Shown: positions 7,272-35,013, numbered from the stretch's first letter. The stretch: DNA of 53,032 nucleotides from an uncultured Candidatus Bathyarchaeia archaeon (GCA_964653695.1 CAZZFQ010000003.1:1-53032); one strand, 5' to 3'. Program-made: numbers and translations. The notes: generated from the letters alone by a model not told the origin.

Positions 7272-7676
7272 CTAGATCAGCATAAGGGAGTCGGTTTTCT
7301 TAAGCCTTCCCGTTACTGTGTCCGGCATCAGGTTAAGAAGCTCTAATGTCGTCAAGCCAACTATCGCCAACTCACTCAACTGTTTTGACCTCAACATTTT
7401 CTTGACCTCGTCCGGTATCTTTAGGACAAGTAAATGCGCATAGGGTAGTTCTTCCTCTTCTACTATCAGTCTGTTGATGACCGCCAACTCCCCCTCCATC
7501 TTATGTCCAGAGGCGGTTGTAAGCGCGAGTGTTCGTTTGACGTAGGTTACACCAATCTTGTCAGCCACATCCTTGTCAACTATGGTCACTGATGCTCCAG
7601 TGTCGACAAGCGCAGTGTCCTCCATACGCTCCGTCGAACCCTGGAGCTTCAGTCTCGCCCTGACAATAGTCAACAA
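7272..7676 (-). CDS. Single-domain retropepsin-like (clan AA) aspartic protease
   Basis: 134 aa with 'ALVDTGASVTIV', the canonical D-T-G-A active-site motif. Confidence 0.7.
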   Translation of the reverse strand: MLTIVRARLKLQGSTERMEDTALVDTGASVTIVDKDVADKIGVTYVKRTLALTTASGHKMEGELAVINRLIVEEEELPYAHLLVLKIPDEVKKMLRSKQLSELAIVGLTTLELLNLMPDTVTGRLKKTDSLMLI

Positions 7677-7945: not shown

Positions 7946-9670
7946 TTATGTTCCGCTTGCTACGACTGTGATCTCGTCAGATTGCTGTATTCCATCATTG
8001 TTTGTGTCGGTCCACTTGCAGATGTAGTATCCTTCAGTGTAGCTTGCAAGGTTCGGATAGACGATATCTGCGAAGTAGACGCCGCCCGCATATGTGCCCG
8101 TATGCGCGATCCCCCACATCGAGAAGACCGTCCTAGACCCGTCCTTGTAGATCTGCAACACGAAGTAGTCTGCCTTGTTGTAGTCGTATGTTGATTTTGC
8201 AACTGAGTAGACCGGTGTTGACCCAGTCATGAACCTGTAATGGGTGGCGTCCATTGAGAAGGTTATCAATGCGTATCCCAGTCCTTCATAGTAGTTGACA
8301 ATCTTGCTAGCTACATAGCCCCCGAAGAGGACAACGTTGCCAGTGAACAACGGCGCCCCCGTAACCTGGTTAACCTTGCTCGAATCGGTTTGAATAATTA
8401 TGTTCTGTGGCGGGTTGCTGCATTTGCCATATATGAAACCAAGCGCAGAATCATCATACATATTGCCCGTCCGAACGAAGTAGACGGCTCGTGAGGCAGC
8501 ACCCAATATGCTTCCAGCGACTTCACTCAGTGTAGGAGCAATGGCGACACGGATCTTGACAACCCTGCCAGGAGACGTATTCGTTCCGAAGTATGCGAAC
8601 CCATTGGCCACATCAATGACAGCCGAGTAGAGGTACGCGTCCGCCGAAAGCAAGGTCAACGCTTCCACACGTGTAAAGTCTGAGAACTTGACCTTGGCAA
8701 CCCTGCCTGGATCTGTCCAAGTTCCGAAGTACGCAAAGCCATTAACAGCATCAAAGACGGCTGAGCGGGGAAAGCTCTCGCCTGAGTCTAGGGTTAGCAC
8801 TTGAATTCGCATGAAGTCTACAAGCCGAATCTTAACGATCCTGCCTGGCGACGTGTCTGCTGCAAAATATGCGAAACCGTTGACGGCGTCTATGACGGCG
8901 GAGGAGGGATTGTTTTCGCCCGGGTCTAGCACTAGGGCCCCGTAACGGGTGAAATCTGATAGTCTGACCTTCACAATCCTGCCTGGCGATGTCTGTGTTC
9001 CAAAGTATGCGAAACCACCGGCAGGATCAATGACGGCTGACCTGAGAAGATTCTCACCTGAAAGCAGAGTCAATGTTCCCGCATGGGAGAAGTCTGAAAG
9101 CCTTACCTTCACAATCTTGCCTGGCGATGTTTCCGTTCCGAAATATGCAAAGCCACCGGCAGTGTCAATGACAGCTGCATGAACGTTGTTTTCGCCTGAA
9201 CCGAGATTCAGTGTTCCAGCGATGGTGAAGTTGGAGAGCCTCACCCTAATGATCTTGCCTGGTAACGTGTGTGTTCCGAAGTATGCGAAACCTCCAGTGG
9301 GATCAATGACGGCGCAAGGAAGATAGTTTTGGCCTGAGCTCAGAGTCAGTGTTCCGGCATGGGTAAAGTTGGAAAGTCGGACCCTAATGATCCTGCCCGG
9401 CGATGTCCACGTGCCGAAGTATGCAAAGCCACCCGCAGGATCAATGACAGCTGACTGGAGATAACTCTCATCTGAAAGCAAGCTTAAAGCTCCTAGACGA
9501 CTCAACGCGTATGCCGCTGGAACTGCTGTCAGCTGAAACATCAAAGCACACACAGAAATCGAAATGAGACAAAGCGCTTTGATCTTCCATAAGCTTAGAG
9601 AATACTTTTTGTTTCTTCGGATGTCTGAAAGACTCATCTTACGATCTACCTTATGATGCAAACCAACCAA
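7946..9670 (-). CDS. Secreted protein: signal/TM, seven 46-aa beta-propeller-type repeats, C-terminal shared ~190-aa module
   Basis: N-terminal 'ALCLISISVCALMFQL'. Seven repeats 'AVIDPAGGFAYFGTxTSPGRIVKVRLSDF...'. The C-terminal domain from 'AVYFVRTGNMYDDSALGF' to 'YYICKWTDTNNDGIQQSDEITVVASGT' is shared with three neighbouring proteins. Confidence 0.85.
   Translation of the reverse strand: MVGLHHKVDRKMSLSDIRRNKKYSLSLWKIKALCLISISVCALMFQLTAVPAAYALSRLGALSLLSDESYLQSAVIDPAGGFAYFGTWTSPGRIIRVRLSNFTHAGTLTLSSGQNYLPCAVIDPTGGFAYFGTHTLPGKIIRVRLSNFTIAGTLNLGSGENNVHAAVIDTAGGFAYFGTETSPGKIVKVRLSDFSHAGTLTLLSGENLLRSAVIDPAGGFAYFGTQTSPGRIVKVRLSDFTRYGALVLDPGENNPSSAVIDAVNGFAYFAADTSPGRIVKIRLVDFMRIQVLTLDSGESFPRSAVFDAVNGFAYFGTWTDPGRVAKVKFSDFTRVEALTLLSADAYLYSAVIDVANGFAYFGTNTSPGRVVKIRVAIAPTLSEVAGSILGAASRAVYFVRTGNMYDDSALGFIYGKCSNPPQNIIIQTDSSKVNQVTGAPLFTGNVVLFGGYVASKIVNYYEGLGYALITFSMDATHYRFMTGSTPVYSVAKSTYDYNKADYFVLQIYKDGSRTVFSMWGIAHTGTYAGGVYFADIVYPNLASYTEGYYICKWTDTNNDGIQQSDEITVVASGT
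8546..9454 (-). repeat. Seven tandem coding repeats of ~138 nt (46 aa)
   Basis: Counted manually in the translation. The antisense ORF 8949-9182 also shows an internal duplication ('LTFTILPGDV.VPKYAKPPA'), which confirms nucleotide-level periodicity. Confidence 0.85.
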
Positions 9671-10031
9671 AGGCCGCGAATCGTTACTTAAGACTTGTCA
9701 AGGATCCAGTTAGCACCACCATCGCATTAGCTACCTATTCACTACACACGCATCGGCCTCGCGTGTTCTTCTCGTCCGTGTCACCGGTATGGAATAGAGA
9801 CTAGTACGGATACTACGAAAGTGATATCAAAGAAAGCTATCTCACTGTGCCTTCTCGCTCCAACATCTGGACATGCCTTCCTCTGCTGCTAGACCGTCAG
9901 AAAATCCCATTCCGCCTCGTACAACCTGAATTGGTTGGATTGACTCTCGGCCCTAAGCTCTCCTGTGTTTAGATCCTAATCGGATAATTCTTTCTTGAAC
10001 TGGATGTGACGTAAATACGGAATATCTAGTT

Positions 10032-11603
10032 TCATATCTGGCCGAAGAAAGCCTTGATTGCTTGGCGTGTTGCCTCACCGTACGGTTGCAGAGTGAACGA
10101 GGCGAAGTCGTCGTCCCAAGAGAATCCAACACCTCTAGGAGCGGCTTTGAGATAAGCATCAAAAGCAATCTGTGCGTTCCTCAATTCATTCTGTCTAACA
10201 TAATCAGGAAGGGATGTCCCGGGGACAAACTCGCACATCCAGTATTCACCGACCATCCACGGAACATGCTTTCCCTTAGCTAGGGTAGCGAACTTCTGGT
10301 AACTGTCAGAGAAGATATGTCTAATATTCTCTTCAGAGAGATTTTCGCTAAAGCCTACGTCACACCCAACTATATCAACATCCTTGAAGTATGCGTCTAC
10401 TGCCTCGGCACTCAATGTCCAGATCGAATCGCTTATCTGGAGGATGATTCTACCGGAGAAAACTTGACGAATCGTGGAGGCTGCCAATGGCATGAAGTCG
10501 ATGAGATTCTTGTTAATGTCATCGCTGCTCCACCCTTGATTTGCAAAGAGCATCTCCACTTCGCTCACCCCGAAATAATCAACTCCCATGCCTTGAAGGG
10601 TTTGTGCGTTTGTCCTCACAAAGTCCAGAAAAGCTGTCTTGAATACCGAGTAGGATGGAAGTTGAGGGATGTCTTTGCCTGGAGAAGCAGTGGGGGTAAC
10701 CCAAACAGCCAATCCGGCCCTTTTCACGTTACTGATGCACTCATAGAGATAGTTGAGGTTGATTGCTGCGTATATGTTGCCTTGCAGCTGCCCAGTTAGG
10801 AAAAGCTGAACAGTGTTGAATCCAGTCGCCTTCATCTTCGCCAAATACTCATCTGTAAACATTGGTCTAAGCTGCTGGTTGTAGATCCACGGACCCAGAT
10901 GGAGCGCCTTTACGGTTGCTCGTGTGCTTTCCCCGCTTGCAACAACAGTGATCTCATTCGACTGCTGTATTCCATCATTATTCAAGTCGGTCCATTTACA
11001 GATCAGGTAGCCTTGCGTGTAGGCTGACAGATTCGGGCAGATTACGTCGCAGAAGTAGACTCCTCCAGCATAGGTCCCTGTCTGCGCTATGCCCCAAACG
11101 GAGAAAATGGTCCTCGATCCATTCATGTAGATTTGTATCACGAAGTAGTCAACCCTATTGTAGTCATACGTGGATCTCAAAACAGAGTAAGCGATTGCCG
11201 CACCTCTCATAAACTTGAAGCGGTTCACATCCATAGAGAAGGTAATAGGAGCGCATCCGAGTCCTTCATAGTAGTCCTCAACCTTATTGGCCATGCAACC
11301 ACCGAAGAGAACCATACTTCCAGCGAACTCCGGAGCACCCGTGCTCTGGGTAACCTTGGATGAATCGGCTTGAGTCACAATATTCTGGGGGCTACTGCAT
11401 TTAGCGTATACGAATCCAAGCGCCGAATCGTCATAGATGTTGCCGGTTCGAACGAAGTGGATAGTTCCAGCAGGGGCACTCAGTATGGTTGTTGAGAGTT
11501 GATTTAGAGCAGGTCCAGTAGCAGTCAGGTCTCGGCTTACAAACGGCGTGACGCCCAAGACAATCACAGTTACGCAGACTAGTGCTCTCAAAAGACTGCT
11601 CAC
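10032..11603 (-). CDS. Secreted protein: N-terminal shared ~190-aa module + C-terminal TIM-barrel glycoside-hydrolase-like domain (GH5-like, tentative)
   Basis: Signal 'LVCVTVIVLGV'. Module from 'TIHFVRTGNIYDDSALGF' to 'LICKWTDLNNDGIQQSNEITVVASGE'. The C-terminal part has 'GFNTVQLF', 'VWVTPT' and 'MVGEYWM'. The glycosidase assignment is weak. Confidence 0.8.
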   Translation of the reverse strand: MSSLLRALVCVTVIVLGVTPFVSRDLTATGPALNQLSTTILSAPAGTIHFVRTGNIYDDSALGFVYAKCSSPQNIVTQADSSKVTQSTGAPEFAGSMVLFGGCMANKVEDYYEGLGCAPITFSMDVNRFKFMRGAAIAYSVLRSTYDYNRVDYFVIQIYMNGSRTIFSVWGIAQTGTYAGGVYFCDVICPNLSAYTQGYLICKWTDLNNDGIQQSNEITVVASGESTRATVKALHLGPWIYNQQLRPMFTDEYLAKMKATGFNTVQLFLTGQLQGNIYAAINLNYLYECISNVKRAGLAVWVTPTASPGKDIPQLPSYSVFKTAFLDFVRTNAQTLQGMGVDYFGVSEVEMLFANQGWSSDDINKNLIDFMPLAASTIRQVFSGRIILQISDSIWTLSAEAVDAYFKDVDIVGCDVGFSENLSEENIRHIFSDSYQKFATLAKGKHVPWMVGEYWMCEFVPGTSLPDYVRQNELRNAQIAFDAYLKAAPRGVGFSWDDDFASFTLQPYGEATRQAIKAFFGQI

Positions 11604-11821
11604 TTTCCCGGGACCACAAGAAGACAGCTTCCTTCCTCCTTTATGGCTACAGAATTTCTCTAACCTCTAAGGCACCTTGCCGTCACCAATAGTTATGCTT
11701 TTCTTCGCGCAGATGGGGCGGCGGCAAGACGTAACCTCTTCTATTTCTGTACCAGGGCCCGTTATAGCCGGCCATAACTGCCGCGCCAGTTCCTTGCAAT
11801 ATTCCTTCGGTTGGCACGGTT

Positions 11822-11829
11822 TTTATATA
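11822..11829 (+). promoter_or_regulatory. TATA-box-like element TTTATATA in the divergent intergenic region
   Basis: Read directly. It lies ~130 nt upstream of the annotated TTG start at 11957, so the link to that gene is uncertain. Confidence 0.25.
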
Positions 11830-11956
11830 CGTGTTTTCGGCAAGTGAATGAGCTTCAGGCTCACCGAGCCTGCTTCAGTGTAAGAGGGTTTGGATGGGTA
11901 TGAACATAACCGAGCAGAATCATGGACGTCTTCGTCAGGAGGCTTGACAAGAAATT

Positions 11957-13549
11957 TTGAATAGTGTCACATTCCGCTTCAGGAAGACAGGCAGCAGAGT
12001 TCTGAGCTTGATCTTTTTCGCTGCAATGGTGGCCTTGTCATTCTCTTCTTCCCGCCTTATTCCGTACGCGTCAGGCGTTTCTCAATTCAACCCTAACCCT
12101 CCTGCTAGTCCGGTCCGTCTGATCTTTATTCACCATTCCACGGGTGAGAACTGGCTGGCTGATGACAACGGCGGACTGGGCATAGCCTTGCGAAATAACA
12201 ACTACTACGTTAGCGACACCAACTATGGCTGGGGGCCAGACAGCATAGGCGATACCACAGACATCGGTCACTGGTGGCTTTGGTTCCGTGGACCCAAAAG
12301 TACCAGCTATCTGAATGCGCTCTACACAGAGAACGGGCAGTACTGTTCCTATTCACGTCTATCCGCCAATCCCGGCGGTGAGAACCTTATTGTAATGTTT
12401 AAATCGTGTTTTCCAAACTCTGCGCTGGACGGTGACCCGAACGCCCCCATACCGCCGATAGGGAGCAACCCTCTGCGCGGAGAGAGCTGCAGCTCGTCAT
12501 ATCATACGATAGCCAATGCCAAGGGCGTCTACATCGATCTTCTAGAGTATTTCCGAACAAGACAGGACAAATTGTTCATCGTCATAACTGCCCCACCTCA
12601 GACTGATCCAACTTTCGCGAGCAACGCCCGCGCCTTCAATATGTGGCTGGTAAGCGACTGGCTCATGAACTACGCCTACAAGAATGTGTTCGTGTTTGAC
12701 TTCTACAATGTGCTCACGACCAATGGCGGCAATCCAAACACCAACGATTTGAATCAAGCAACTGGTAATCATCATCGTTGGTGGAATAACGCCATACAAC
12801 ACAAGACCGACGGTGACGACGACAGCAATCCCAATATCCTAGAATATCCAAGCGCAAGCGACGACGACCATCCAAGCAAGGCCGGCAACCTAAAAGCCAC
12901 AGGCGAATTCCTGCCACTGCTGAACATCGCATACAACCGCTGGAAAGAGGTTAGCACAATCGGACTCAACCAAGTATCTAGCGCGATACTGAATGCTCCT
13001 GCGAGAACCGTCTATTATGTTCGGACAGGCAATATGTATGATGATTCTGCGCTTGGATTCGTATACGCCAAATCCAGTAATCCTCAGAACATGATCATTC
13101 AGACTGACGCAAGCAAGGTCAACCAGGTTACAGGTGCACCGCTCTTCACTGGCAACGTTGTTCTCTTCGGTGGCTACGGAGCCAGCAAGGTTGTCAACTA
13201 CTATGAGAGGACAATGGGATATGTTCGCATCTCCTTCTCATATAATGCAACCCACTACAGGTTCATGAAAGGTTCAACAGTCGTCTATTCTGTTTCGATG
13301 CCTACCTACAACTCCAGCAAGGCCGACTATTTCCTGCTACAGATCTTCATGGACGGGTCTAGGACGGTCTTCTCGATGTGGGGGATCGCGCACACAGGCA
13401 CATATGCAAGCGGAGTATATTTTGCGGACGTAGTCTATCCCAGCTTGGCGTCCTACACGCAGGGCTACTACATCTGCAAGTGGACCGACCTAAACAACGA
13501 CGGCATACAACAATCGAATGAAATAACCGCCGTCGCAAGCGGAACATAG
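11957..13549 (+). CDS. Secreted protein: SGNH-like hydrolase domain (tentative) + C-terminal shared ~190-aa module
   Basis: Signal 'VLSLIFFAAMVALSF'. 'LIFIHHSTGENW', 'KSCFPNS' and 'DDDHPSKAGN' resemble SGNH blocks I/III/V. The C-terminal module is ~80% identical by eye to that of 7946-9670. Confidence 0.8.
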   Translation: MNSVTFRFRKTGSRVLSLIFFAAMVALSFSSSRLIPYASGVSQFNPNPPASPVRLIFIHHSTGENWLADDNGGLGIALRNNNYYVSDTNYGWGPDSIGDTTDIGHWWLWFRGPKSTSYLNALYTENGQYCSYSRLSANPGGENLIVMFKSCFPNSALDGDPNAPIPPIGSNPLRGESCSSSYHTIANAKGVYIDLLEYFRTRQDKLFIVITAPPQTDPTFASNARAFNMWLVSDWLMNYAYKNVFVFDFYNVLTTNGGNPNTNDLNQATGNHHRWWNNAIQHKTDGDDDSNPNILEYPSASDDDHPSKAGNLKATGEFLPLLNIAYNRWKEVSTIGLNQVSSAILNAPARTVYYVRTGNMYDDSALGFVYAKSSNPQNMIIQTDASKVNQVTGAPLFTGNVVLFGGYGASKVVNYYERTMGYVRISFSYNATHYRFMKGSTVVYSVSMPTYNSSKADYFLLQIFMDGSRTVFSMWGIAHTGTYASGVYFADVVYPSLASYTQGYYICKWTDLNNDGIQQSNEITAVASGT

Positions 13550-13599
13550 CATGACCGTATGAGAAGGCTGTCAATAGGCGGCGCTTCTCACAGGATGGG

Positions 13600-13619
13600 C
13601 TTACGCCTTCTTGCGTAAG
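13600..13619 (+). terminator. Hairpin CTTACGC-cttctt-GCGTAAG ~50 nt after the stop
   Basis: 7-bp perfect stem read directly. No clear oligo-T follows, so terminator function is uncertain. Confidence 0.25.
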
Positions 13620-14224
13620 GCACCTCATATTGTCTCAGTGACGTTTGACTGCCTAGGCAGGGCCCCTCCCTATGTCATGGTGAATTACGCTTGCGTCCAA
13701 TGAAGAGAAGATCCTGGTAGATCCACTCTTGGCACAGTTCGAGGAAGAAGCGATGGCCGAGGCGCTCTCAGGACCATACGAGCCTGTTCAAATCGCCAAA
13801 TCCGAAATCTTGCGCAGATGCTTATGACAATAGCGCGGAGCCACCTCTGACGGTCGTATGCTTCAATAATGCGAAGAAGGAGGAGGAAACAGCCTGGCGT
13901 GCCTTCACAACGTAAAGCAGCGCTAACTCAATCGAGATGGGAATGATGGAGGAAATATCTATCCATATGCACCGACCATGGCTTGACTTGGACTCGAACA
14001 ACAGCAAATTGGGCTTCAGTGAAAATCAAGTTCATCGCAGAAGCGTTGTATCACTTGCACGAATTGCTCGGGCCATTTGCCACGATTCAGAACTCAGCTC
14101 TGTCACGTAGTTTGATTCACGCCAAGATGGATCGCCATGTGCTACGAGCACTCACTGTCGTGTCTGGGCAGAGGGCTACACTTATAGAAGTGAGGGAAAC
14201 AGAAGTTACATAGAGAGCCTATCG

Positions 14225-14443
14225 ATGCCAGACCTCAAGATTCAGCACGAGTACAAAGAGCTCGCGGAAGAGTATGCTGGACTTGTGAAGGCGCATTTCA
14301 ATGGCCGTCTAAGGTCGATCTGCTTCTTCGGGTCCGCCGCATTGGGGAATAGATTCCTAGAAGCCGAATGGCATGCTCACCAATCCTCGAGCTGTCTGCA
14401 AACCACTAAGTTCATCCACTGCATACCTCTCAAGCTCTCATAG
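14225..14443 (+). pseudogene. Truncated nucleotidyltransferase N-terminal fragment
   Basis: 'RSICFFGSAALGN' gives the hG[GS] motif, but no D-x-D follows and the ORF ends after 72 aa. Confidence 0.45.
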
Positions 14444-14490
14444 TCATTCTATTCAGCGACAGGCGTGGAGGATGTCCCTGCAGTAGGTCT

Positions 14491-14922
14491 TTGATGAAAA
14501 AGTTTATCAAACCGTCCAGAGGTTCAAGAACCGAGTGTCATTATGCAATGGATGTCATTATCCGAGGCATGAGGACTCGCATCTACCGCGAGTTCAAGGC
14601 TCAAGCCAACAAAATGGGTCTAAGGCTGAGCGATGCCCTACAGAAGGCGATTGAGAGATGGTTGCTGGAGAACTCTCAATCAAGCCTTGTTATGAACGAT
14701 CCAAACCAGTTGGCCTTTGCCAAACTGGCGAGTCAGATAGAGTCAAAGTATCGCGGCAAATACGTGGCTATGTGCGGTGGCAAACTATACGTAGCTGAGA
14801 CACTTGAAGACCTTGCACGCCAGCTCAAGGAAGCAGGCATCGCAAGAGCAGTCGTATCTCATGTTGGCGCTGATGAGTCAGGGGAAGGCGGCGAGTGGTT
14901 TTGGGGATCTATAGAACGCTAA
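14491..14922 (+). CDS. Ribbon-helix-helix (FitA/VapB-like) + DUF5678-like small protein; true start probably ATG 14548
   Basis: 'MDVIIRGMRTRIYREFKAQANKMGLRLSDALQKAIERWL' fits an RHH antitoxin-like N-terminus. 'KYRGKYVAMCGGKLYVAETLEDLARQLKEAG' resembles DUF5678 as I recall it. Confidence 0.6.
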   Translation: MMKKFIKPSRGSRTECHYAMDVIIRGMRTRIYREFKAQANKMGLRLSDALQKAIERWLLENSQSSLVMNDPNQLAFAKLASQIESKYRGKYVAMCGGKLYVAETLEDLARQLKEAGIARAVVSHVGADESGEGGEWFWGSIER

Positions 14923-14963
14923 ACTGCCACAGTTACGATATTGAAGCCAAGCCGGAGAGACCT

Positions 14964-15317
14964 ATGATACATGTATCAATAACCGGGCCTGCCACAGGCA
15001 GAGAGATGAAATTCACGGCAGCCGCGGACACAGGTTTCTCAGGGTACCTCCTGGTCCCCATGGAAACATATCTGGAGTATTCTGAGTTGGAGCTGCCCGT
15101 AAGGGATTTCCTTACATACAGGACCATCGTTGGGCCGATTGTGCTTCGAAGGGCCAGAGTCACAGCGGCGATCCTCGGAGACAGATTCGAAACCTTCATA
15201 GAAACCCCGCTCATTGGAATGGGTAGGTTCCTTCTTGGACGTCGTATTCTCAACGCTCTTCGGCTTGCGTTGCTCGGTCCGGAGAAGAGATCCTGCCTCC
15301 TAGAAGAGCAGGGATAA
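14964..15317 (+). CDS. Clan AA aspartic protease, DTGF (AF_0612-like) family
   Basis: 'KFTAAADTGFSGYLLVP' (D-T-G-F). ~117 aa from ATG 14964, which has GGAGAG 6 nt upstream. The ORF-track start 14895 overlaps the previous gene. Confidence 0.7.
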   Translation: MIHVSITGPATGREMKFTAAADTGFSGYLLVPMETYLEYSELELPVRDFLTYRTIVGPIVLRRARVTAAILGDRFETFIETPLIGMGRFLLGRRILNALRLALLGPEKRSCLLEEQG

Positions 15318-15437
15318 CCATACCAACAGAAGTGATAACTGCAACAGCCCCAGCTACTTAGCCGCATCATAAAGCCCTAAGACACACGCTTGGGCCCTTT
15401 GGTCAGATTCACTCATCTGGACTAGGTAGGTGAGGCG

Positions 15438-15444
15438 TTAAATA
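15438..15444 (+). promoter_or_regulatory. TATA-like box TTAAATA centred 26 nt upstream of ATG 15467 (suggests a leaderless or near-leaderless transcript)
   Basis: Position read directly. The spacing matches the usual archaeal TATA-to-TSS distance. Confidence 0.4.
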
Positions 15445-15466
15445 GAACAATCACTGATATCAAGAA

Positions 15467-17146
15467 ATGGGGAAAAATTTGGAAAGAGGAACAGCGAAAG
15501 GAGTTCTCCTATGTGTCTTTCTGCTTGTGCTGGTCTTTTCATCGACGGAGAGCCGCAGTGCTGAAGCCTATGTAGGAGCTGGCTGGACTAAGCATGCTAG
15601 CTACGTTCTGAACGTGGGAGCGCCCGGTGCATGGGACGACTATGGAGTCACCCATCCTTGTGTGATCAAGGATGGTGACACCTACAAGATGTGGTATAGT
15701 GGTCTTGATGGGACAGGTAAGCGAAAGATAGGCTACGCGACATCGACCGACGGTATTAGTTGGACTAAGTATGTCGCCAACCCGGTTCTGACCGTGGGAG
15801 CGGCCGGTGCGTGGGACGATGACCAAGTTGGCGCCCCATCAGTTATCAAGGATGGCTCAACTTACCGAATGTGGTACACAGGTAATGATGGGAGCACCTA
15901 CAGAGTAGGGTATGCAACTTCAGCTAACGGTATCGCATGGACCAAGTATTGGGGGAATCCAGTCGTATCCCTTGGGGCCGGACCTACAGATCCTGACCGT
16001 GTCGGCGTTATGTCTCCAAACGTCATCAAGGAGGAGTCTGGCTTCGTTATGTGGTACTCAGGTTACGACGGCTCGAAGATCTACATCTGCATGGCGTATT
16101 CTGGCGACGGAGCAAGGTGGTCGAAATATGACGGAACATTGGGAGGAGTCACGGATAAAGTACTTGACGTGGGAGCGGCGGGTGCCTGGGATGATACATG
16201 GGTTACCGATTGTGCAGTGCTGAGGTCGGGAGATGTCTACTTCATGTACTACATGGGCTATGACGGAGCCACAGGCTTTGCGATAGGTTTGGCTTACTCA
16301 ACAACAGGCAAGACCTGGACCAAATACGGTGGTAACCCTCTTGTAAACAAAGGTGCCGCGGGTACTTGGGATGACGTCGCTCTGCGTGGGCCATGTGTCA
16401 TTCAAGACCGCCTAGATTTCAAGATGTGGTACACTGGGACAGACACCACTTCAGACGCTACACGACGGATAGGATACGCTACGAACCTTATGCGCATGGG
16501 TGGAGCGATGGGTTTGATCGATGGCCCTGAGAACACTGTATACTACATCTACCCGGATTATCAAGGTACGAAGCCTACCGGGACCGCGTACGCCTCGCTC
16601 AGCGACTGGACCTCTCTAGGAATGGTAATAGGTATGAGCAGCAACAACCAATACGTCACCACGGATACACACACGTCTGTTGTAGGTGCTGATGGTGGGC
16701 TTGTCGTTTCAGCGACATATTCCGCAGTGATATGTGGTGGAAGGGGCGTGAGTGGCCCGACGAGGTACTATGAGATTGTTGCTGCGACGTCGCCTGCGTA
16801 CTTCCAACTCGTCGGAACCACATACTACTTCTATTCTCGCTCGACAGGAACGTCGGTCGCCGGGACCGCGATGAGCGGATCGGTAGTATCGACCAACCAA
16901 GACATGTTCATCATAATGGCGTTCAAGCACTGGAATGGTAGGAACGTAATAATCCTCTACGGCTATGGTTGGAAGGGAAGCTACGCAGCCGCACTGTGGT
17001 TCAAGTATGGAACTGGAGCATGGGCCTTCGGTAGGGCGGGTATACCTACACGCGAGAACGCCTACTACATCTTCAAGTGGACCGACGCCAACGGAGACGG
17101 CTTCGTAGACCTCTCAGAGATCAGCTTCGTCGCCGCAGGCAGCTAG
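15467..17146 (+). CDS. Secreted protein: five-bladed beta-propeller glycosidase-like domain + diverged copy of the shared C-terminal module
   Basis: Signal 'VLLCVFLLVLVF'. Five repeats 'GAAGAWDD..V..P.VIKDG.TY.MWY.G.DG....IGYATS.DGI.WTKY..NPV'. The C-terminus 'YYIFKWTDANGDGFVDLSEISFVAAGS' aligns with the module of the three neighbours. Confidence 0.85.
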   Translation: MGKNLERGTAKGVLLCVFLLVLVFSSTESRSAEAYVGAGWTKHASYVLNVGAPGAWDDYGVTHPCVIKDGDTYKMWYSGLDGTGKRKIGYATSTDGISWTKYVANPVLTVGAAGAWDDDQVGAPSVIKDGSTYRMWYTGNDGSTYRVGYATSANGIAWTKYWGNPVVSLGAGPTDPDRVGVMSPNVIKEESGFVMWYSGYDGSKIYICMAYSGDGARWSKYDGTLGGVTDKVLDVGAAGAWDDTWVTDCAVLRSGDVYFMYYMGYDGATGFAIGLAYSTTGKTWTKYGGNPLVNKGAAGTWDDVALRGPCVIQDRLDFKMWYTGTDTTSDATRRIGYATNLMRMGGAMGLIDGPENTVYYIYPDYQGTKPTGTAYASLSDWTSLGMVIGMSSNNQYVTTDTHTSVVGADGGLVVSATYSAVICGGRGVSGPTRYYEIVAATSPAYFQLVGTTYYFYSRSTGTSVAGTAMSGSVVSTNQDMFIIMAFKHWNGRNVIILYGYGWKGSYAAALWFKYGTGAWAFGRAGIPTRENAYYIFKWTDANGDGFVDLSEISFVAAGS

Positions 17147-25921: not shown

Positions 25922-26097
25922 CCCCATAAAGCCCGAGCAGATTGAGAGGGCTCACATCAACCCCGCGAGGAGCACCAAAAAGCAAAAGGCCAACCGCCAG
26001 CCCAACGAGGCCTCTATCCATAGGTCAATCCCATCCTAGCAAGCATAATAAAGGGCTCGCCATTCAACACAGGTCAAAAGGCGAGGTGACAGGTTCA

Positions 26098-26634
26098 GTG
26101 AGCGCAAGGAGTCTAGATCTTAAAGGAGTAGGAACATGCGACTTGAGGATCACGCCCGACGAAAGAGGGTTCTTCGCAGAAGGTTTGAGGCAAGACTGGA
26201 AGGAATTCTTAAATGGTCAATGGATCGCTCAGGCCAATCTCTCTTACAGTTACCCGAATGTGGTTAGGGCATGGCATAGACACCTAAGAGGCCAAGTAGA
26301 CTATTTCTTGGTCTTGGAAGGCTCGATGAAGATCTGCGCTTATGATGACGATGTGAAATCAGCGACAAGAGGTCACCTAGTTGAGATTGTGGCAAGTGCG
26401 AATAGGCCTCAGGTTGTCCGGATACCGGGCGAGTACTGGCACGGAACCAAGACAGTCGGCTGCAAACCTTCTCTAACGGTCTATTTCGTCACAAGGCTCT
26501 ACGAATACGAGAACCCTGACGAAGATCGGAGGCCGTGGAACGATACGACAATAGTGCCGACTACGGTAAACGGTAGAGCGGATGACCCTCGCGTCGGAAA
26601 ACCTTGGGACTGGTTCTATCCAGTTCACAAGTAG
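26098..26634 (+). CDS. rmlC: dTDP-4-dehydrorhamnose 3,5-epimerase-like cupin (RmlC family)
   Basis: 'DERGFFAE', 'VRAWHRH', 'DYFLVLEGSMKICAYD', 'IPGEYWHG'. GTG 26098 is preceded by GAGGTGA. The ORF-track start 25942 adds a basic low-complexity extension that I consider non-coding. Confidence 0.65.
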   Translation: MSARSLDLKGVGTCDLRITPDERGFFAEGLRQDWKEFLNGQWIAQANLSYSYPNVVRAWHRHLRGQVDYFLVLEGSMKICAYDDDVKSATRGHLVEIVASANRPQVVRIPGEYWHGTKTVGCKPSLTVYFVTRLYEYENPDEDRRPWNDTTIVPTTVNGRADDPRVGKPWDWFYPVHK

Positions 26635-27663
26635 GTGGTTATCTTGAAGGTGCTTGTCACCGGAGGAGCGGGATACATAGGCTCAACCTTGATCCCTGTA
26701 TTGCTTGACAAGGGGTACAAGGTCGTGTGCCTCGACAGACTGTTCTTCGGAAAAGAATCTCTAGCCGAAGCATCAGAAAACTCAAACTTCGAGCTGCAAA
26801 AGGACGATGTCAGGTGGTTCGACCCGAGAATTTTGAAGGACGTGGACACTGTCGTCGACCTTGCGGCGCTATCCAATGACCCAAGTGGGGAACTTGATCC
26901 GGCAAAGACGCTCGACATAAACTATCTCGGAAGGGTCAGGGTCGCCAGATTGAGTAAGGAGTATGGCGTCAGACGGTACATCTTGGCATCTTCCTGTAGC
27001 GTCTATGGTTTTCAGACGGAGATGCTTACTGAAGAATCCGCAGTAAACCCACTAACAACTTACGCGAAGGCCAACGTCATGGCTGAAAAAGACATCCTCC
27101 CTCTCGGAGATTCAGAATTCACAGTCACGGCGGTGAGGCTGGCAACCGTGTACGGCCTCTCGAGGAGAATGAGGTTCGACCTAGCAGTGAATGGCATAGT
27201 TCTTGGACTATACAAGACGGGAAAGATACAGGTGATGAGAGACGGAAGTCAGTGGAGGCCTTTCATTCACGTCAAAGACGTAGCGGTAGCCCTCACAAAA
27301 TTTGTCGAGAACTCACCTGACGAAGTAAACCGTCAGGTCTTCAACACAGGATCAGACGATCAGAACTACCAGATATACCCACTCGCCGAACTAATCGGAA
27401 GAGCTGTCAGAGCGCCTTTTAAGATCGAATGGTACGGAACCCCAGACAAAAGATCGTATAGAGTCAGTTTCAGAAAGATTAAGGAGAAGTTGAACTTCAC
27501 GCCGAGACTTACGCCGAGTGAGGCGGCAGAGGAAATCTACAACGCTTTGAAAGATGGTGGAATAACAGATTCCATGAGGGCAAGAACCGTAGACTGGTAC
27601 AAACATCTTCTGGACGCGGAAGCTACAGTGAGAGAGGTTATGTTCAGAAACACAGTGCTGTGA
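26635..27663 (+). CDS. NAD-dependent epimerase/dehydratase (extended SDR); start probably TTG 26644
   Basis: 'VLVTGGAGYIGS', 'ILASSCSVYG'. Atypical 'YAKAN' sits where YxxxK is expected. Confidence 0.8.
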   Translation: MVILKVLVTGGAGYIGSTLIPVLLDKGYKVVCLDRLFFGKESLAEASENSNFELQKDDVRWFDPRILKDVDTVVDLAALSNDPSGELDPAKTLDINYLGRVRVARLSKEYGVRRYILASSCSVYGFQTEMLTEESAVNPLTTYAKANVMAEKDILPLGDSEFTVTAVRLATVYGLSRRMRFDLAVNGIVLGLYKTGKIQVMRDGSQWRPFIHVKDVAVALTKFVENSPDEVNRQVFNTGSDDQNYQIYPLAELIGRAVRAPFKIEWYGTPDKRSYRVSFRKIKEKLNFTPRLTPSEAAEEIYNALKDGGITDSMRARTVDWYKHLLDAEATVREVMFRNTVL

Positions 27664-27675
27664 GGTCATAGTTGT

Positions 27676-28596
27676 ATGAGGGTGCTGGTCGTAGGAGGAG
27701 GAGGACAGCTAGGAACAAAGATAATAGAGGGAGGAAAAGGCCGCTTCGAGCTGTACGCCACCTACCAAACCAGAAAACCACCACTTGACAGTCCAGCCAT
27801 CTTTCAAGTCGACAAGACAAGCAGGGAGGGCCTGCTGACAGTCTTCAGGAAAGCAAAACCTGACGTTGCTGTTGATACAGCGGCACTTCACGATGTGGAT
27901 TACTGCGAAACTCACAAGGATGAAGCGTGGGAGGTGAATGTCCGAGGCACAAGGAATGTGGCGGAAGCATGCCAGAACCACGGCGCGAAGATGATTTTCA
28001 TATCAACCGACTATGTTTTCAACGGAAAGAAGGGAACCTACGTTGAAGATGACCAGCCAAATCCCATAAACTACTACGGACTGAGCAAACTGGAAGCGGA
28101 GAAGGCGGTGGCCAAAGTCTGCCGCAGTCACGTGATAGCAAGGCCATCCGTGATATACAGCTATGCATCCTCCAGTCAACGCGCTTCGTCCTCTGGGAAG
28201 CCACTCAACTTCGCAATGTGGCTGACGCAGAAACTGGCGTGCAACGAATCAGTGAAAGTCGTAATGGACCAGTACAGTTCTCCCACGCTTGCTGACAACT
28301 TGGCGGAAGCGGTATTGAGATTGGCTGAAAGCGATAGGACAGGAATATTTCATACAGCTGGCGGTACAAGGTTAAGTAGATTTGAGTTCGCATTGGAAAT
28401 TGCGCGAAAATTGGGATTCGACGAGAAGCTAGTCACACCCATAGAGACTAGTCAGCTGAAGCAGGTGGCGAAGAGACCGATGGACAGCTCGCTTAACGCT
28501 GGGAAAGTGAAAAAGCAGCTCGGCATAGAAATGTGGAAGATCGAAGATGCCTTGGAGTGGTTCAGGGAGCAGTTTCTGAAAGGTGCTCATGGATGA
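27676..28596 (+). CDS. rmlD: dTDP-4-dehydrorhamnose reductase (RmlD family)
   Basis: 'MRVLVVGGGGQLG', 'STDYVFNG', 'NYYGLSKLEAE' (YxxxK). ~300 aa, typical for RmlD. Confidence 0.75.
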   Translation: MRVLVVGGGGQLGTKIIEGGKGRFELYATYQTRKPPLDSPAIFQVDKTSREGLLTVFRKAKPDVAVDTAALHDVDYCETHKDEAWEVNVRGTRNVAEACQNHGAKMIFISTDYVFNGKKGTYVEDDQPNPINYYGLSKLEAEKAVAKVCRSHVIARPSVIYSYASSSQRASSSGKPLNFAMWLTQKLACNESVKVVMDQYSSPTLADNLAEAVLRLAESDRTGIFHTAGGTRLSRFEFALEIARKLGFDEKLVTPIETSQLKQVAKRPMDSSLNAGKVKKQLGIEMWKIEDALEWFREQFLKGAHG

Positions 28597-29663
28597 AAGG
28601 CTTACTTCTTGCTGGCGGGCACGGCACTAGGCTACGACCCTTAACCTTCACTGGCAACAAACATATGCTACCGATAGGAAACAAGCCGATGATCCTGTAT
28701 GGCCTTGAAGACTTGATCAAGGCGGGCATAAATGAGATAGGCGTCGTATTGGGCCCGATCAACGAGGATATTAAGGGCTTTCTGGGAGACGGCGCGAGAT
28801 TCGGTGTGAATATCACATACATCGATCAACCTGAACCCAAGGGCCTGGCACACGCCATAGCCATGTCTGAAGGCTTTCTTCGAGACGAACCTTTTGCAAT
28901 GTACCTTGGAGATAACCTGCTTAAGCAGGGAGCAGAGCCTCTGGTAAAGACCTTCGAGAGAGGCGAGGCTGATTGTATCATCGCGGTCACCCAGGTCAAA
29001 GATCCCAGCAGATATGGCATCGTAGTTTTCAACCAGGAAAAAAAGATTGAAACACTTGTGGAGAAACCGAAGCAATCAATAAGCAACTGGGCGCTGATAG
29101 GAGTCTACGTCTTCAATAGCAAGATATTCGAAGCGATCAAGAGGATCAAACCGTCTTGGCGAGGGGAGCTTGAGATAACGGACGCGATACAGGTCCTATT
29201 GAAGAGCGGAGGAAGAATTGATGTGCAATTCGCTCAAGGATGGTGGAAGGATACCGGTAGACCTGAAGACCTTCTTGAGGCTAATCAGTTGGTACTGCAA
29301 GAGCTTCAGCCTCTCAATGAGGGAGCAATTGAGGAAGGTGCAATGTTGACCGGAATTGTTAGGATCGGTAAGCACACAAAGATCAATAAGAGAACAACGA
29401 TAAGGGGTCCAGTGGTCATAGGCGAGCACTGTCAAATTGGTCCGAACACGTATGTTGGCTCATATACCTCAATAGGTAATGGCTCTACGATTAGAAATGC
29501 CGAGCTTGAGAATTCAATATTGATGGAAGGCGCGCACATAGACTGCGGGAAACGGATAGTAGACAGTTTGATAGGGAGGAACGTGACGGTGATATGTGCA
29601 GAGAACAGTGTGCCCCGAGGTGTCAAGCTTGTTCTTGGGGACATGGCTCACGTGCAAGTATGA
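28593..29663 (+). CDS. rmlA: Glucose-1-phosphate thymidylyltransferase, long form (nucleotidyltransferase + left-handed beta-helix)
   Basis: 'MKGLLLAGGHGTRLRPLT'. The C-terminal hexapeptide-like region is 'IGPNTYVGSYTSIGNGSTIRN'. ATGA overlap with rmlD. The ORF-track start 28533 is internal to rmlD. Confidence 0.8.
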   Translation: MKGLLLAGGHGTRLRPLTFTGNKHMLPIGNKPMILYGLEDLIKAGINEIGVVLGPINEDIKGFLGDGARFGVNITYIDQPEPKGLAHAIAMSEGFLRDEPFAMYLGDNLLKQGAEPLVKTFERGEADCIIAVTQVKDPSRYGIVVFNQEKKIETLVEKPKQSISNWALIGVYVFNSKIFEAIKRIKPSWRGELEITDAIQVLLKSGGRIDVQFAQGWWKDTGRPEDLLEANQLVLQELQPLNEGAIEEGAMLTGIVRIGKHTKINKRTTIRGPVVIGEHCQIGPNTYVGSYTSIGNGSTIRNAELENSILMEGAHIDCGKRIVDSLIGRNVTVICAENSVPRGVKLVLGDMAHVQV

Positions 29664-29728
29664 GAGTGAGTCAACACACATCATGCAGCAAATTATATTG
29701 TTCACCTAGAGCAGCGGTCCCTTGCTTC

Positions 29729-30796
29729 CTAAGTGATTTCTGCATTCTCAAGGAACCGGCGGAGTTGACTATGCTCAAAAAGAATGTCGAGTATGCGTCT
29801 CAAACGTTGGTGCTGAGCTGGCTGATGCCTACAGAGTCGTGGATACATTCTGGCTAGTACCTCACCTTCACCCACCGTTCTGTTTGCCTGAATCCAGACT
29901 CGTCGAGTGTAGGTGTCTCTGAAATTCAGTACATTCCACAGCATCGCGTTTACTACCGCAACGCTCTTCTTCGGTTCAAGTATCGCAAAGCCACCAGCTG
30001 CCAAGAAGCTAAACAGCAAACACCGTCCGAGAGCCCACCCAAGTGAAGGCCCACAATTCTTGAGTATCGACCTTAGAAAGTTCCTGTGGCAGTAGTACAG
30101 CTTCCTCTCATCTATAGTCTTGCTGTGAGCAGTGCCTGAGAAGTAATGGGCTACTCTTGCCTCGGGAGCGAACCTCACCTTATAGCCAAGGAGTCTGAGC
30201 CTCCACGAAAAGTCCGCATCCTCGACGTACATAAAGAACTTGCCGTCAAAGCGCCCCATCTTCTGAAACATCTTCCGGTTTATCAGTGCAGCGCCACCGC
30301 AAAAGGCAAAGGGTTCAAAGTCAGAATCGTATTGGCCTCGGTCCTGCACTTCTTTGCCGATATCAACGAATCCCCTCCAAAACGGAATTCCCATTCCGCC
30401 AACGGAATCCAAGTGTGAATGGTCGTCCATGGAAACCATCTTACAAGCAACAGCAATGGTTTTGGGATCTCTAGTTGCGACATCCACTAGCCGGCTGATC
30501 CATTGATTGTCTAAGACCTCCGTATCGGTATTTAGTAGCACGACAAAGTCGGCCTCAACTTTGTCTATGGCTCTGTTGTAAGCCTCTGGAAAGCCTAAAT
30601 TTCTCTCATAAGCGATGATCTTGACCGATGGAAAGCTTCCTCTAACATACTCAATCGACCCGTCTTGACTTCCATTATCGACCAAATAGACCTCTAGATT
30701 AGGGTAGTCGCTCTTGGCTACGCTCGAGAAGCAACGGAGAAGCCATATTCGCCCATTGTGGTTGATTACAATGACTGCGACCTTTGGCTTTTTCAA
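29729..30796 (-). CDS. Family 2 glycosyltransferase (rhamnosyltransferase-like)
   Basis: 'VAVIVINHNG', 'YLVDNGSQDGS', 'VLLNTDTEV', 'FCGGAALI..KMF'. Confidence 0.8.
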   Translation of the reverse strand: MKKPKVAVIVINHNGRIWLLRCFSSVAKSDYPNLEVYLVDNGSQDGSIEYVRGSFPSVKIIAYERNLGFPEAYNRAIDKVEADFVVLLNTDTEVLDNQWISRLVDVATRDPKTIAVACKMVSMDDHSHLDSVGGMGIPFWRGFVDIGKEVQDRGQYDSDFEPFAFCGGAALINRKMFQKMGRFDGKFFMYVEDADFSWRLRLLGYKVRFAPEARVAHYFSGTAHSKTIDERKLYYCHRNFLRSILKNCGPSLGWALGRCLLFSFLAAGGFAILEPKKSVAVVNAMLWNVLNFRDTYTRRVWIQANRTVGEGEVLARMYPRLCRHQPAQHQRLRRILDILFEHSQLRRFLENAEIT

Positions 30797-31158
30797 TTGA
30801 ACCGATCTCTGACCATTTCATATGTTGACTAGGCAGAGATGTGAGGCCTTTTCAGCGAAGTTTGCGCAACCTGCGTCGCGTTTACAAGAACTGAAGACGC
30901 GCATTATTAAACTATCGGGAAAGTTTATTGGAAACAAGTGGACGACACAGAAGGTGTCTCGTGAAATGATCACGACAAGCAGAACGCCAGAATTGTGGTA
31001 GAAGGAAACGTTAAGAGGAATCTCTGTGGAGACATGAGATCTACGACCCGAATATTGGAAGGTAGCTCGTGTGAAGAGAGTTTATCAGAAACCTTACCTG
31101 CAAGGAATCTGAACCCAGGTAGGTTCAAATCAGAGATTCAGTTAGATGTGAGAACTGC

Positions 31159-31914
31159 ATGTTTGAATATCGGGACATGATCTGGATCCTCGTCAAGAAA
31201 GACTTCAAGATCAGATACAGAAACTCAGCTCTGGGATTCGTGTGGTCTCTGCTTAACCCGCTCTCAACTATGGTGATACTCACAGTAGTCTTCTCACTTC
31301 TACTCAGGTCAGACATCAAGAATTTTCCCATATTCCTCTTGGCAGCGCTTCTACCCTGGCGCTTCTTCCAAATAGGCACGATGCAGGCCACAGGAAGCAT
31401 TGTCGGCAATCCTTCCCTCATCAAGAAGATATACCTTCCTAGGCACATACTCGTTCTAGCGAACAATTTGGCAAGTTTTGTCTCTTTCCTTATGGAGTTC
31501 GCTTCTCTTGTGCCGATCATGATTGTTCTTGGAATGAACGTAACTCCCTATGCTCTTCTCCTCCCATTGGTCATGATCATCGAATTCATAATGGTCCTAG
31601 GAATATCCCTAAGTCTCGCAGCGCTCAATGTGTTCTACCGAGACTTCTACCAGATATGGGAGATAGTGCTCCAGCTGGGCTTCTTCCTCTCCCCGGTCTT
31701 CTATGATCCAAACATAATCCCGGAACGATATCGATTCTACTATTCTCTCAATCCCGTGACCAGAATAGTCGACTCCACAAGAAAGATTCTCTTCTACGAT
31801 GTTCCGCCGACGGCTTTCGATCTCGCTGTCCCGCTTCTCATCGGCCTCATGCTCTTTGCGATTGGATGCATCATATTTCGCAGACTGGAGCCGAAGTTCG
31901 CTGAGGTAGCCTAG
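31159..31914 (+). CDS. ABC-2 type polysaccharide exporter permease (Wzm/TagG-like)
   Basis: 'KDFKIRYRNSALGFVWSLLNP' plus six hydrophobic segments. Confidence 0.8.
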   Translation: MFEYRDMIWILVKKDFKIRYRNSALGFVWSLLNPLSTMVILTVVFSLLLRSDIKNFPIFLLAALLPWRFFQIGTMQATGSIVGNPSLIKKIYLPRHILVLANNLASFVSFLMEFASLVPIMIVLGMNVTPYALLLPLVMIIEFIMVLGISLSLAALNVFYRDFYQIWEIVLQLGFFLSPVFYDPNIIPERYRFYYSLNPVTRIVDSTRKILFYDVPPTAFDLAVPLLIGLMLFAIGCIIFRRLEPKFAEVA

Positions 31915-31916
31915 CG

Positions 31917-32705
31917 TTGAGCGTTATAGAAGTGGAAGATGTTTGGAAGAGATTCCTAATTCCTCACGAAAGAAGAACCACAGTGCTAGAAACCATAGCC
32001 GGTGCCTTGGCCCTCTTCGGCGGGAGAAGATCGACATTCGAAGAGTTTTGGGCATTGAGAAACATCACTTTCAATGTGACTAAAGGAAGATCGATAGGCA
32101 TCATAGGTGAAAATGGTAGCGGAAAAACAACCCTTCTTCGTCTGATAGCTCGAGTCATGACGCCAGACCAAGGAAGAATAGCCGTCACAGGGAGAATTGC
32201 GCCGATGCTAGAGCTAGGCTTAGGATTTCACCCAGAACTCACGGTCAAAGAGAACGTCGTCGTCTTCGGAGCCATCATGGGGCTACAGAGAGAGAAGCTA
32301 AGAAAGCAGATAGGATCAATCATCAAGTTCTCAGAACTGAAGAGGTTCGAAGACGCCCCATTGAAAACATTGTCATCCGGCATGCAGATGAGGCTCGCAT
32401 TCTCAGTCGCAGTCGAAACCGATGCAGACATAATCCTTGTAGACGAAGCCTTAGCAGTAGGTGACATGGAATTTCGAAGGAAATGCTTGAGCAAATTCAA
32501 AGAGTTCAAAAACGAAGGAAGAACGATAGCCCTAGTCTCTCATGACTTGAACCTAGTCACTGAATTCTGCGAAGACGCGCTCCTCCTCTCTCAGGGGGAA
32601 CTCGTGGCCAAGGGAAACGCAAGCCATGTTGTTCAAGAATACATAAACGAGACCGAGTCTCAATCAGCCTCCGCTCCAACCGTCAATCAGGTGATCGACA
32701 GCTGA
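31917..32705 (+). CDS. ABC transporter ATP-binding protein (Wzt/TagH-like, no C-terminal glycan-binding domain)
   Basis: Walker A 'GENGSGKTT', signature 'LSSGMQMRL', Walker B 'IILVDEAL'. TTG start. Confidence 0.85.
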   Translation: MSVIEVEDVWKRFLIPHERRTTVLETIAGALALFGGRRSTFEEFWALRNITFNVTKGRSIGIIGENGSGKTTLLRLIARVMTPDQGRIAVTGRIAPMLELGLGFHPELTVKENVVVFGAIMGLQREKLRKQIGSIIKFSELKRFEDAPLKTLSSGMQMRLAFSVAVETDADIILVDEALAVGDMEFRRKCLSKFKEFKNEGRTIALVSHDLNLVTEFCEDALLLSQGELVAKGNASHVVQEYINETESQSASAPTVNQVIDS

Positions 32706-32754
32706 GATAGTTCTATTTCCGTTCCCTTTGATATGGCAACTCTTACCTACATCT

Positions 32755-33945: not shown

Positions 33946-34045
33946 GCTCGGCACACGTCTTATCTGCATTAGATGATTCAAGCGGCTTGGCGGCAGTTCG
34001 AGAAACCATTCGATCAGCAGAGATGATTACATAGGTTGAGGCTCC

Positions 34046-34738: not shown

Positions 34739-35013
34739 CCGTCCGCACCTGCTGTCAGTTTCTCTCTTCTTCGCCTCATCTACTTTGGTATCTCATGGAG
34801 CTTATCTATCATATCTGCAATGGGAAGGTTGCCCTCAACGTCTAGAAAGAGTTTTCCCTCCATCGCCTATATATCCAACAGCTGCGGATCGCTGGATGTT
34901 AACTGTGATGTATTTCAAAGAGAAGGGAAAATCTTGAGGAAATCTGGAGACCTCGCCCAAGAGGATCTTGCTAATCTGTATGCACAGCTCGTGTGACGGA
35001 TGGGAGAGATTCA

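Follow-up and report, generated by a model that had tools for sequence, protein, structure and literature searches.

SLH (PF00395) and CWB2 (PF04122) domains are terminal, non-catalytic modules that are common to many unrelated secreted enzymes of one organism, and their genes often form clusters close to those that specify the wall polymer bound by the modules. In anoxic sediments Bathyarchaeia rank with the most abundant archaea, and they are believed to feed on detrital protein and polysaccharide that they break down outside the cell. Pseudomurein is not known from this group. Here we describe a module of about 190 residues that is shared by four neighboring secreted proteins encoded on a 53,032-nt stretch of DNA (the window) from an uncultured Candidatus Bathyarchaeia archaeon (GCA_964653695.1 CAZZFQ010000003.1:1-53032). 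The module represents a family of extracellular domains that we did not find in the libraries and literature searched; the principle of a shared targeting module is already familiar. We propose, tentatively and with somewhat less than even confidence, that it is a non-catalytic, probably calcium-stabilized module that putatively tethers secreted enzymes to the envelope of the cell that produces them.

Four copies of one module and the family to which they belong

The four genes are designated A to D, and the N-terminus of each product reads directly as an n-h-c signal peptide. Gene A (7946..9670, minus strand, 574 aa) encodes the signal peptide, seven YWTD-like β-propeller repeats and a protein-terminal module (7949..8512, minus strand, aa 387-574). 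In gene B (10032..11603, minus strand, 523 aa) the module (10929..11489, minus strand, aa 39-225) has an N-terminal placement and is followed by a C-terminal part of ~300 aa. Gene C (11957..13549, plus strand, 530 aa) carries a head of ~300 aa and a protein-terminal module (12983..13546, plus strand, aa 343-530). Gene D (15467..17146, plus strand, 559 aa) has a GH130-like five-bladed propeller and a protein-terminal module (16511..17143, plus strand, aa 349-559) of a diverged 'PDYxG' subtype. The copies are ~188-211 aa long, and the coordinates given in a preliminary description of the window lie within about 20 nt of these computed boundaries. A six-frame scan of the 53 kb with hidden Markov models (HMMs) found exactly these four copies.

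Among modules A, B and C, identity is 64-80% at the amino-acid level and 70-78% at the nucleotide level (BLASTP 3e-97 for A against B). Module D, earlier called a diverged form, is indeed only 29% identical to A over 185 columns (BLASTP 3e-11), and the family HMMs match it at 1e-61 to 1e-64, compared with 1e-68 to 1e-88 for module A. Chance similarity of the four modules is rejected by these values (BLASTP 3e-11 to 3e-97, HMM ≤1e-61). All four regions align significantly, and BLASTP, the family HMMs and the six-frame scan agree with the earlier claim that one module occurs in four neighboring proteins. Third-codon identity among modules A, B and C is 51-61%, which makes them old paralogs under purifying selection; recent duplication or an assembly artifact as their source is rejected by the same figure. 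Outside the module, no two of the four proteins resemble each other (all BLASTP E > 1).

The head of protein A (aa ~50-385) consists of seven repeats of ~46 aa with matches to LRP2/LRP6 propellers down to 2e-8. The head of protein D matches Pfam Glyco_hydro_130 at 7.5e-15 and the NCBIfam model for β-1,2-mannobiose phosphorylase at 1.2e-13, which is under the cut-off of that model. Neither the C-terminal part of protein B nor the head of protein C has a match in Pfam, NCBIfam or PDB sequences, so the TIM-barrel and SGNH labels proposed for them have no library support and stay motif-level guesses. By such motif reading, the ~300-aa domain of B is possibly a clan GH-A-like barrel, and the head of C is plausibly SGNH-like. 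An ortholog of B, P0021, has an identical architecture. An open reading frame (ORF) of 160 aa that lies antisense to gene B (10317-10799, plus strand) is most likely a spurious frame.

Direct reading of the four proteins revealed no C-terminal hydrophobic anchor, since the module itself closes the protein in A, C and D. A tripartite C-terminal signal of the PGF-CTERM, archaeosortase or sortase type was not found either, as the last strand of the module is followed by one or two residues and the stop codon ('...VASGT', then stop). The combination of signal peptides with the lack of another anchor, as noted before, is therefore upheld.

The module belongs to a real and large family. An exhaustive profile search that covered 1.84 billion representative proteins found 976 representatives at E ≤1e-3, of which 681 reach ≤1e-10 and 202 reach ≤1e-30. 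The size of the family is visible only by such a search; a word-indexed homolog search returned merely 15-20 relatives. All matches that bear an organism name come from Bathyarchaeota/Bathyarchaeia, the named sources being four GTDB genomes, including the 2.17-Mb chromosome OY970072.1, as well as MEM2094437.1 and OGD54034.1. The matching proteins are uniformly annotated as 'hypothetical protein'.

When isolated modules were compared with Pfam, all scores were sub-threshold (DUF7151 0.14; EF-hand_6 0.016; EF-hand_5 0.048; FG-GAP_3 0.087), and the weak EF-hand and FG-GAP_3 matches fall on the terminal loop of copy D. No NCBIfam or PHROGs model and no PDB sequence profile matches the module. A Pfam scan of 79 members found no family that covers the module and none common to all. 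Models for SLH, CWB2, dockerin, PPC and carbohydrate-binding modules (CBMs) gave no match when the modules and the four window proteins were scanned with Pfam, and they are absent from the 25 most frequent families of the 79 members, save for one CBM96 in a partner region. Literature on the S-layer and cell surface of Bathyarchaeia, on extracellular enzymes with C-terminal domains and on envelopes of enrichment cultures holds no description of the module. The module was accordingly rightly regarded as not belonging to a named family, and no strong match to a characterized CBM or S-layer family appeared in Pfam, NCBIfam, PHROGs or PDB.

A faint resemblance to methanococcal S-layer proteins had also been suggested. 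For comparison, six genuine S_layer_C (PF05124) sequences were retrieved, aligned and compared with the module profile by hhalign. The alignment covers 25 columns with 61% probability and corresponds to a strand-GGP-xxN-helix stretch, in which the motif 'VLFGGPLVN' of the module resembles 'LILVGGPVAN' in the C-terminal region of S-layer proteins of Methanococcales. It stops at this motif, and the PF05124 and TIGR01564 models match none of the modules at E ≤10 (Pfam) and E ≤1 (NCBIfam). The local motif therefore stands, whereas homology to methanococcal S-layer proteins is not established.

Predicted fold, conserved residues and the terminal loop

Two AlphaFold2 models were made from independent alignments, one of 15 sequences with copy A as the lead sequence and the other of 18 sequences led by copy D. 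They have a pLDDT of 91.2 and pTM of 0.87 (A) and a pLDDT of 90.8 and pTM of 0.89 (D). In both models a β-α-β-β-α-β stretch leads into a four-strand meander, after which come a long helix and a final β-hairpin, and the module is predicted to be one compact α/β domain of ~190 residues.

With either model as query, a Foldseek search of the PDB placed Escherichia coli BcsB first (E 1e-4 and 4e-3; probability 0.96-1.0), with TM-scores of 0.43-0.50, a root-mean-square deviation of 5-9 Å and 9-13% identity. The next matches were non-catalytic N-domains of GH67 and GH115 (both models) and of GH84 and GH20 (first model only). Among viral predicted structures there was no match to the module (best E 0.13), and the Pfam model of BcsB (PF03170) did not match it. 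The resemblance to BcsB may serve as a lead that is compatible with glycan handling or with self-association, and it gives no family assignment.

In the periplasmic part of BcsB, carbohydrate-binding jellyrolls alternate with flavodoxin-like α/β modules that polymerize by strand complementation (PMC8892547). By analogy, the module could self-assemble in this manner, or plug into a scaffold as a dockerin does, to form multi-enzyme surface complexes. That the top structural match is the BcsB crown, whose α/β domains polymerize in this way (PMC8892547), speaks for such a role, as do the single dockerin-like calcium-type loop, the existence of tandem two-module proteins and the slightly greater closeness of module copies within a genome than between orthologs. 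The TM-scores are only 0.43-0.50, though, no candidate scaffold or cohesin-like partner occurs in the loci examined, and the module scans gave no Pfam dockerin match. We consider oligomerization or docking improbable as the function of the module.

Conservation was analyzed over 137 modules, with residues numbered from the start of the module in copy A. Residues D20, G134 and W167 are 100% conserved, followed by D115, G139 and E180 (99%), G65 and D169 (98%), E76 (95%), Y74 and Y163 (94%), and Y75 and T140 (93%). The invariant acidic and aromatic set thus comprises D20, the YYE sequence at 74-76, D115, W167, D169 and E180. The modules are acidic (median pI 4.6) and contain 7.4% Tyr and 2.1% Trp.

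Invariant acidic residues in an α/β fold (D20, E76, D115 and D124) might also belong to a small hydrolase that uses Asp/Glu to modify glycans or the envelope, in which case the module would add a second activity to its partners, and modules that stand alone exist. On the other hand, the module has no invariant Ser, Cys or His, it shows no similarity to catalytic families in Pfam, NCBIfam or PDB, and a single enzyme would not usually be joined to more than 50 unrelated heads. A catalytic function is therefore highly unlikely.

A feature overlooked in the preliminary description is an EF-hand-type loop in the terminal 'W.D.N.DG.....E' stretch. Over the same 137 modules, position 1 of this loop is D in 98%, position 3 is N, D or S in 93%, position 5 is D or N in 99%, position 6 is G in 71% and position 12 is E in 99%. 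The loop is found at 7973..8008 (minus strand) in copy A, with sequence DTNNDGIQQSDE, at 10953..10988 (minus strand) in copy B and 13487..13522 (plus strand) in copy C, both with DLNNDGIQQSNE, and at 17084..17119 (plus strand) in copy D, where DANGDGFVDLSE is fully canonical with V at position 8. The 12-residue pattern D-x-[DNS]-x-[DN]-G-x-x-x-x-x-E, conserved to 93-99% at the ligand positions, is like that of the loops in EF-hands, dockerins, FG-GAP repeats and galactose-binding protein. In contrast to EF-hand domains and dockerins, in which the loops are paired, each module has a single loop that both models place between two β-strands, and all Pfam scores for it are sub-threshold. A helix-loop-helix context or paired hands are absent in both models. 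Because the loop is flanked by strands and not by helices, it is better described as an EF-hand-like structural site than as an EF-hand domain, and the terminal hairpin presumably holds a putative structural calcium site.

Placement, partner domains and genomic setting

A strong C-terminal bias was observed: in 151 of 164 copies (92%), from 159 retrieved proteins, the module ends at most 12 residues from the C-terminus, and copies at that position end in a conserved G-x stop. Tandem two-module proteins account for five of the 159, and the B ortholog P0021 and P0066 are exceptions with an N-terminal module. A signal-like N-terminus is present in 95 of the 159 proteins, many of the others being contig-end fragments, and a second, non-N-terminal hydrophobic segment (19-mer) occurs in only 2 of the 159. 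Some family proteins consist of a signal peptide and the module alone. In many members a recurrent Ig-like spacer of ~90 aa ('FDFSLSNNGGISV...GGGLTRTTSFTLTV'), which is without a name in Pfam, immediately precedes the module; its carriers include P0017, P0019, P0025, P0026, P0030 and P0056.

The placement at the extreme C-terminus in 92% of the copies, with the conserved G-x stop, is what would be expected of a sorting, export or pro-domain, similar to the T9SS C-terminal domain or PPC, that is recognized by a machinery and removed or used only in secretion. Such a function is hard to combine with the conserved N-terminal copies (B and P0021, at 70% identity, and P0066) and with the internal and tandem copies. 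Furthermore, 190 aa with a putative calcium site and a higher conservation than the heads is large for a signal, and no conserved neighboring machinery was present in the loci examined. We thus regard a sorting role as very unlikely.

The partners of the module are diverse. Among the 79 scanned members 56 Pfam partner families were found, in agreement with the proposal that the module is portable and sits on unrelated heads. Peptidases of families C1, S8, M6, C14 and C25 account for 12 of these 79 proteins and are no rarer than enzymes with a clear action on glycans. Other partners are β-helix/NosD, FG-GAP, DUF3131, GH130, PL14, Nitroreductase and CBM96, and the propellers include PQQ, Kelch, PD40, BNR and carrageenase-like types.

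A further peptidase fusion lies in a tailed-provirus-like block at locus L016 (1-12923), which consists of same-strand genes with the fusion gene, P0168, at its end. P0168 combines Peptidase_C39_2 with the module and has no signal peptide. The block includes a tape-measure-like gene (phrog_1686, 6.8e-5) and a tail-fiber-like gene (phrog_11338, 3.4e-7); tail-fiber genes directly precede P0168, and an integrase gene (phrog_1, 3.6e-12) is located on its far side. A variant of this block from the same sample, L019, has 85-91% nucleotide identity and a swapped tail-fiber segment, and it retains a P0168 homolog at 88-90% identity. A metagenome scan with P0168 recovered, apart from the contig of origin, a single variant of 88% identity. 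From the gene order, P0168 in both blocks may be a putative lysin or tail enzyme in which the module would serve to bind the host envelope.

These partners also bear on the possibility that the module is a substrate-targeting CBM, which would bind a polymer from the surroundings, for example detritus or a polysaccharide of plants or algae, and concentrate the enzyme on its substrate, not on the cell. Like many CBMs the module is aromatic-rich and acidic and has a calcium-type loop, and its fold neighbors are all polysaccharide-handling proteins. Partners such as GH130, DUF3131, PL14, the carrageenase-like propeller and CBM96 would suit such a function, as would the known degradation of detritus by Bathyarchaeia. 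However, peptidases, non-enzymatic propellers and β-helices make up an equal or larger share of the partners, and no Pfam CBM model matches the module. CBMs for common polymers spread widely, whereas the module has so far been seen in only one archaeal class. A peptidase-module fusion that lacks a signal peptide and lies in a provirus-like block is also hard to reconcile with substrate targeting. Substrate binding as the general role is unlikely, although it is the most probable of the alternatives to anchoring.

Orthologs were used to compare the rate of change of the module with that of the heads. Between A and its ortholog in locus L012 the identity is 73% in the module and 55% in the head; for D and its L012 ortholog the values are 80% and 68%, and for B and P0021 they are 70% and 54%. 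The module is thus under stronger constraint than the catalytic heads. Within the window modules A and C are 79% identical, which is higher than the 73% between A and its own ortholog, and this hints at homogenization or shared constraint.

Module genes occur in clusters, with four in the window, four in 19 kb of locus L014 and two adjacent ones in L015. Loci L012 and L013, which are both syntenic with the window, have three module genes and fragments each. Frameshifted or truncated module fragments were seen in L010 (9595-9911), L011 (2332-2648), L012 (3471-5904) and L007 (2994-3239), where they lie beside intact or truncated module genes, which points to continuing gain and decay of copies. 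In L009 (2454-8356) the module gene P0001 directly follows a tyrosine integrase gene and is near a protein-primed family-B DNA polymerase gene (DNA_pol_B_2), suggesting an integrated mobile element; the same contig encodes a second module protein of 1420 aa.

Its gene content gives the window the look of a variable island. At its edge is a TnpB/Cas12f1-like gene (133-1434, plus strand; TNB domain 1.8e-18), and IS110 and TnpB-like genes are also present in the syntenic loci L012 and L013. Two toxin-antitoxin-like pairs of nucleotidyltransferase and HEPN genes, assigned by reading of the sequence, follow on the minus strand (2347-3139 and 3773-4602); in L007 the corresponding Pfam families adjoin a module gene. 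A gene for a gingipain-family peptidase (Peptidase_C25, 5048-6928, plus strand, 1.5e-33) encodes an N-terminal membrane segment and no module, and one family member outside the window combines C25 and the module. The retropepsin-like gene at 7272-7676 (minus strand) matches gag-asp_proteas (8.6e-9) and Asp_protease_2 (1e-7), and Asp_protease_2 genes occur again beside module genes in L007 and L014. A small ORF at 14895-15317 (plus strand) has a DTG motif by reading and no Pfam match, and overlaps an upstream ORF (14491-14922).

Beyond gene D the window encodes two surface-type proteins without the module. The first, of 313 aa (17279-18220, minus strand), is MG2/CarboxypepD_reg-like with a C-terminal transmembrane helix and a charged coiled tail, and the second, of 896 aa (23231-25921, plus strand), has CarboxypepD_reg at its end. 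Apparent counterparts of similar size lie beside module genes in L012, L013 and L014.

Downstream of the island is a surface-glycan locus (25942..35712) with rml-like genes for dTDP-rhamnose, glycosyltransferase (GT) genes and an ABC-2 exporter, all assigned by Pfam. It starts with RmlC-like (25942-26634), RmlB-like (26635-27663), RmlD (27676-28596) and RmlA (28533-29663) genes, followed by a GT2 gene (29729-30796, minus strand), a Wzm/Wzt-like pair of ABC-2 permease (31159-31914) and ABC ATPase (31917-32705), a GT4 gene (32728-33945), a glucose-6-phosphate isomerase gene (34046-34738) and a further GT2 gene (34993-35712). A giant multidomain GT4/GT2 protein is encoded a few kb from module genes in L007, L012 and L013, and in L001 three GT4 genes lie 6-10 kb from a module gene. 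Rml-like genes (dTDP-sugar isomerase and epimerase) adjoin module genes in L007 only. By association, the surface-glycan locus is a candidate source of the ligand.

Proposed role and comparison with known systems

According to the anchoring role that we tentatively favor, enzymes that are exported by the Sec route and have no membrane anchor would carry the module as a putative holdfast. The module would attach to an envelope component of the producing cell, which could be an S-layer glycoprotein or a surface glycan with rhamnose, and the exported enzymes would thereby stay tethered to that cell. We infer the binding, its ligand and the dependence on calcium from the circumstantial evidence. 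The C-terminal placement, the peptidase partners, the lineage, the conservation of the module, the glycan locus and the provirus fusion make an envelope role plausible, and the role in targeting or surface attachment that the preliminary description had assigned to the module is likewise plausible.

Several observations weigh against anchoring. Proteins that consist of the module alone are not obviously accounted for, and the nearest structural analogs of the models are weak (TM ≤0.5) and fit oligomerization equally with glycan handling. The lineage restriction is based on four genomes and three named proteins, the 976 representatives being without taxonomy. Since most loci are syntenic relatives, the association with glycan loci was seen independently only about once or twice. 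For the provirus fusion there is a single element, known in two variants and identified by weak-to-moderate PHROG matches, and the terminal loop is missing from the module that it encodes. Scans of IMG/VR with a few short peptide patterns, including patterns from P0168, gave no module-encoding locus; the sole match, L017, is a loop-like stretch of 31 residues (HMM E 0.002) and no true module.

A wider version of the anchoring proposal is possible, though doubtful: Bathyarchaeia may have a calcium-dependent anchoring system of their own, in which a module of new fold ties most exported enzymes to a lineage-specific rhamnose glycan or S-layer glycoprotein, and viruses co-opted this module. If so, it would be an independently arisen archaeal counterpart of the SLH/secondary cell wall polymer or CWB2/PSII systems, and viruses would use the module for targeting of lytic or tail proteins.

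The module marks about a thousand diverse secreted-protein clusters, and a profile HMM built from it would allow surface proteins and exoenzymes to be listed for any Bathyarchaeia genome. It is also a small, confidently modeled domain that is suited to expression. If it binds cells, it would provide a lineage-specific affinity probe for imaging or enriching uncultured Bathyarchaeia; if it binds substrate instead, it would found a new CBM family.

Among described proteins, BcsB (9FMT, 7L2Z, 6YG8) resembles the module in having an α/β module with added β-strands, and BcsB is a glucan-guiding, self-polymerizing periplasmic protein (PMC8892547). Unlike the module, it is membrane-anchored and lacks the terminal EF-hand-type hairpin. 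In function, the proposed role would parallel that of SLH and CWB2 domains in Gram-positive bacteria and of pseudomurein-binding repeats (PMBR) in Methanobacteriales, the module being an analog and not a homolog of these. With SLH and CWB2 it shares the terminal position on many unrelated secreted proteins and the clustering of the genes. There is no sequence match to these domains, the module is a single α/β domain of ~190 aa instead of three short repeats, and its putative binding would take place in an archaeal host without peptidoglycan or a classical secondary wall polymer.

The PMBR offer a comparison within the archaea. A putative pseudomurein-binding domain at the C-terminus is common to non-S-layer surface proteins (bioRxiv 10.1101/2024.05.28.596244). 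The repeats are unrelated to the module in sequence and size, and the viral identity of the L016 block comes from modest PHROG matches. The PMBR nevertheless are an archaeal module that is found both in surface proteins of the host and in a viral cysteine-peptidase lysin (PeiW, PeiP), to which the C39-like fusion of L016 may be compared.

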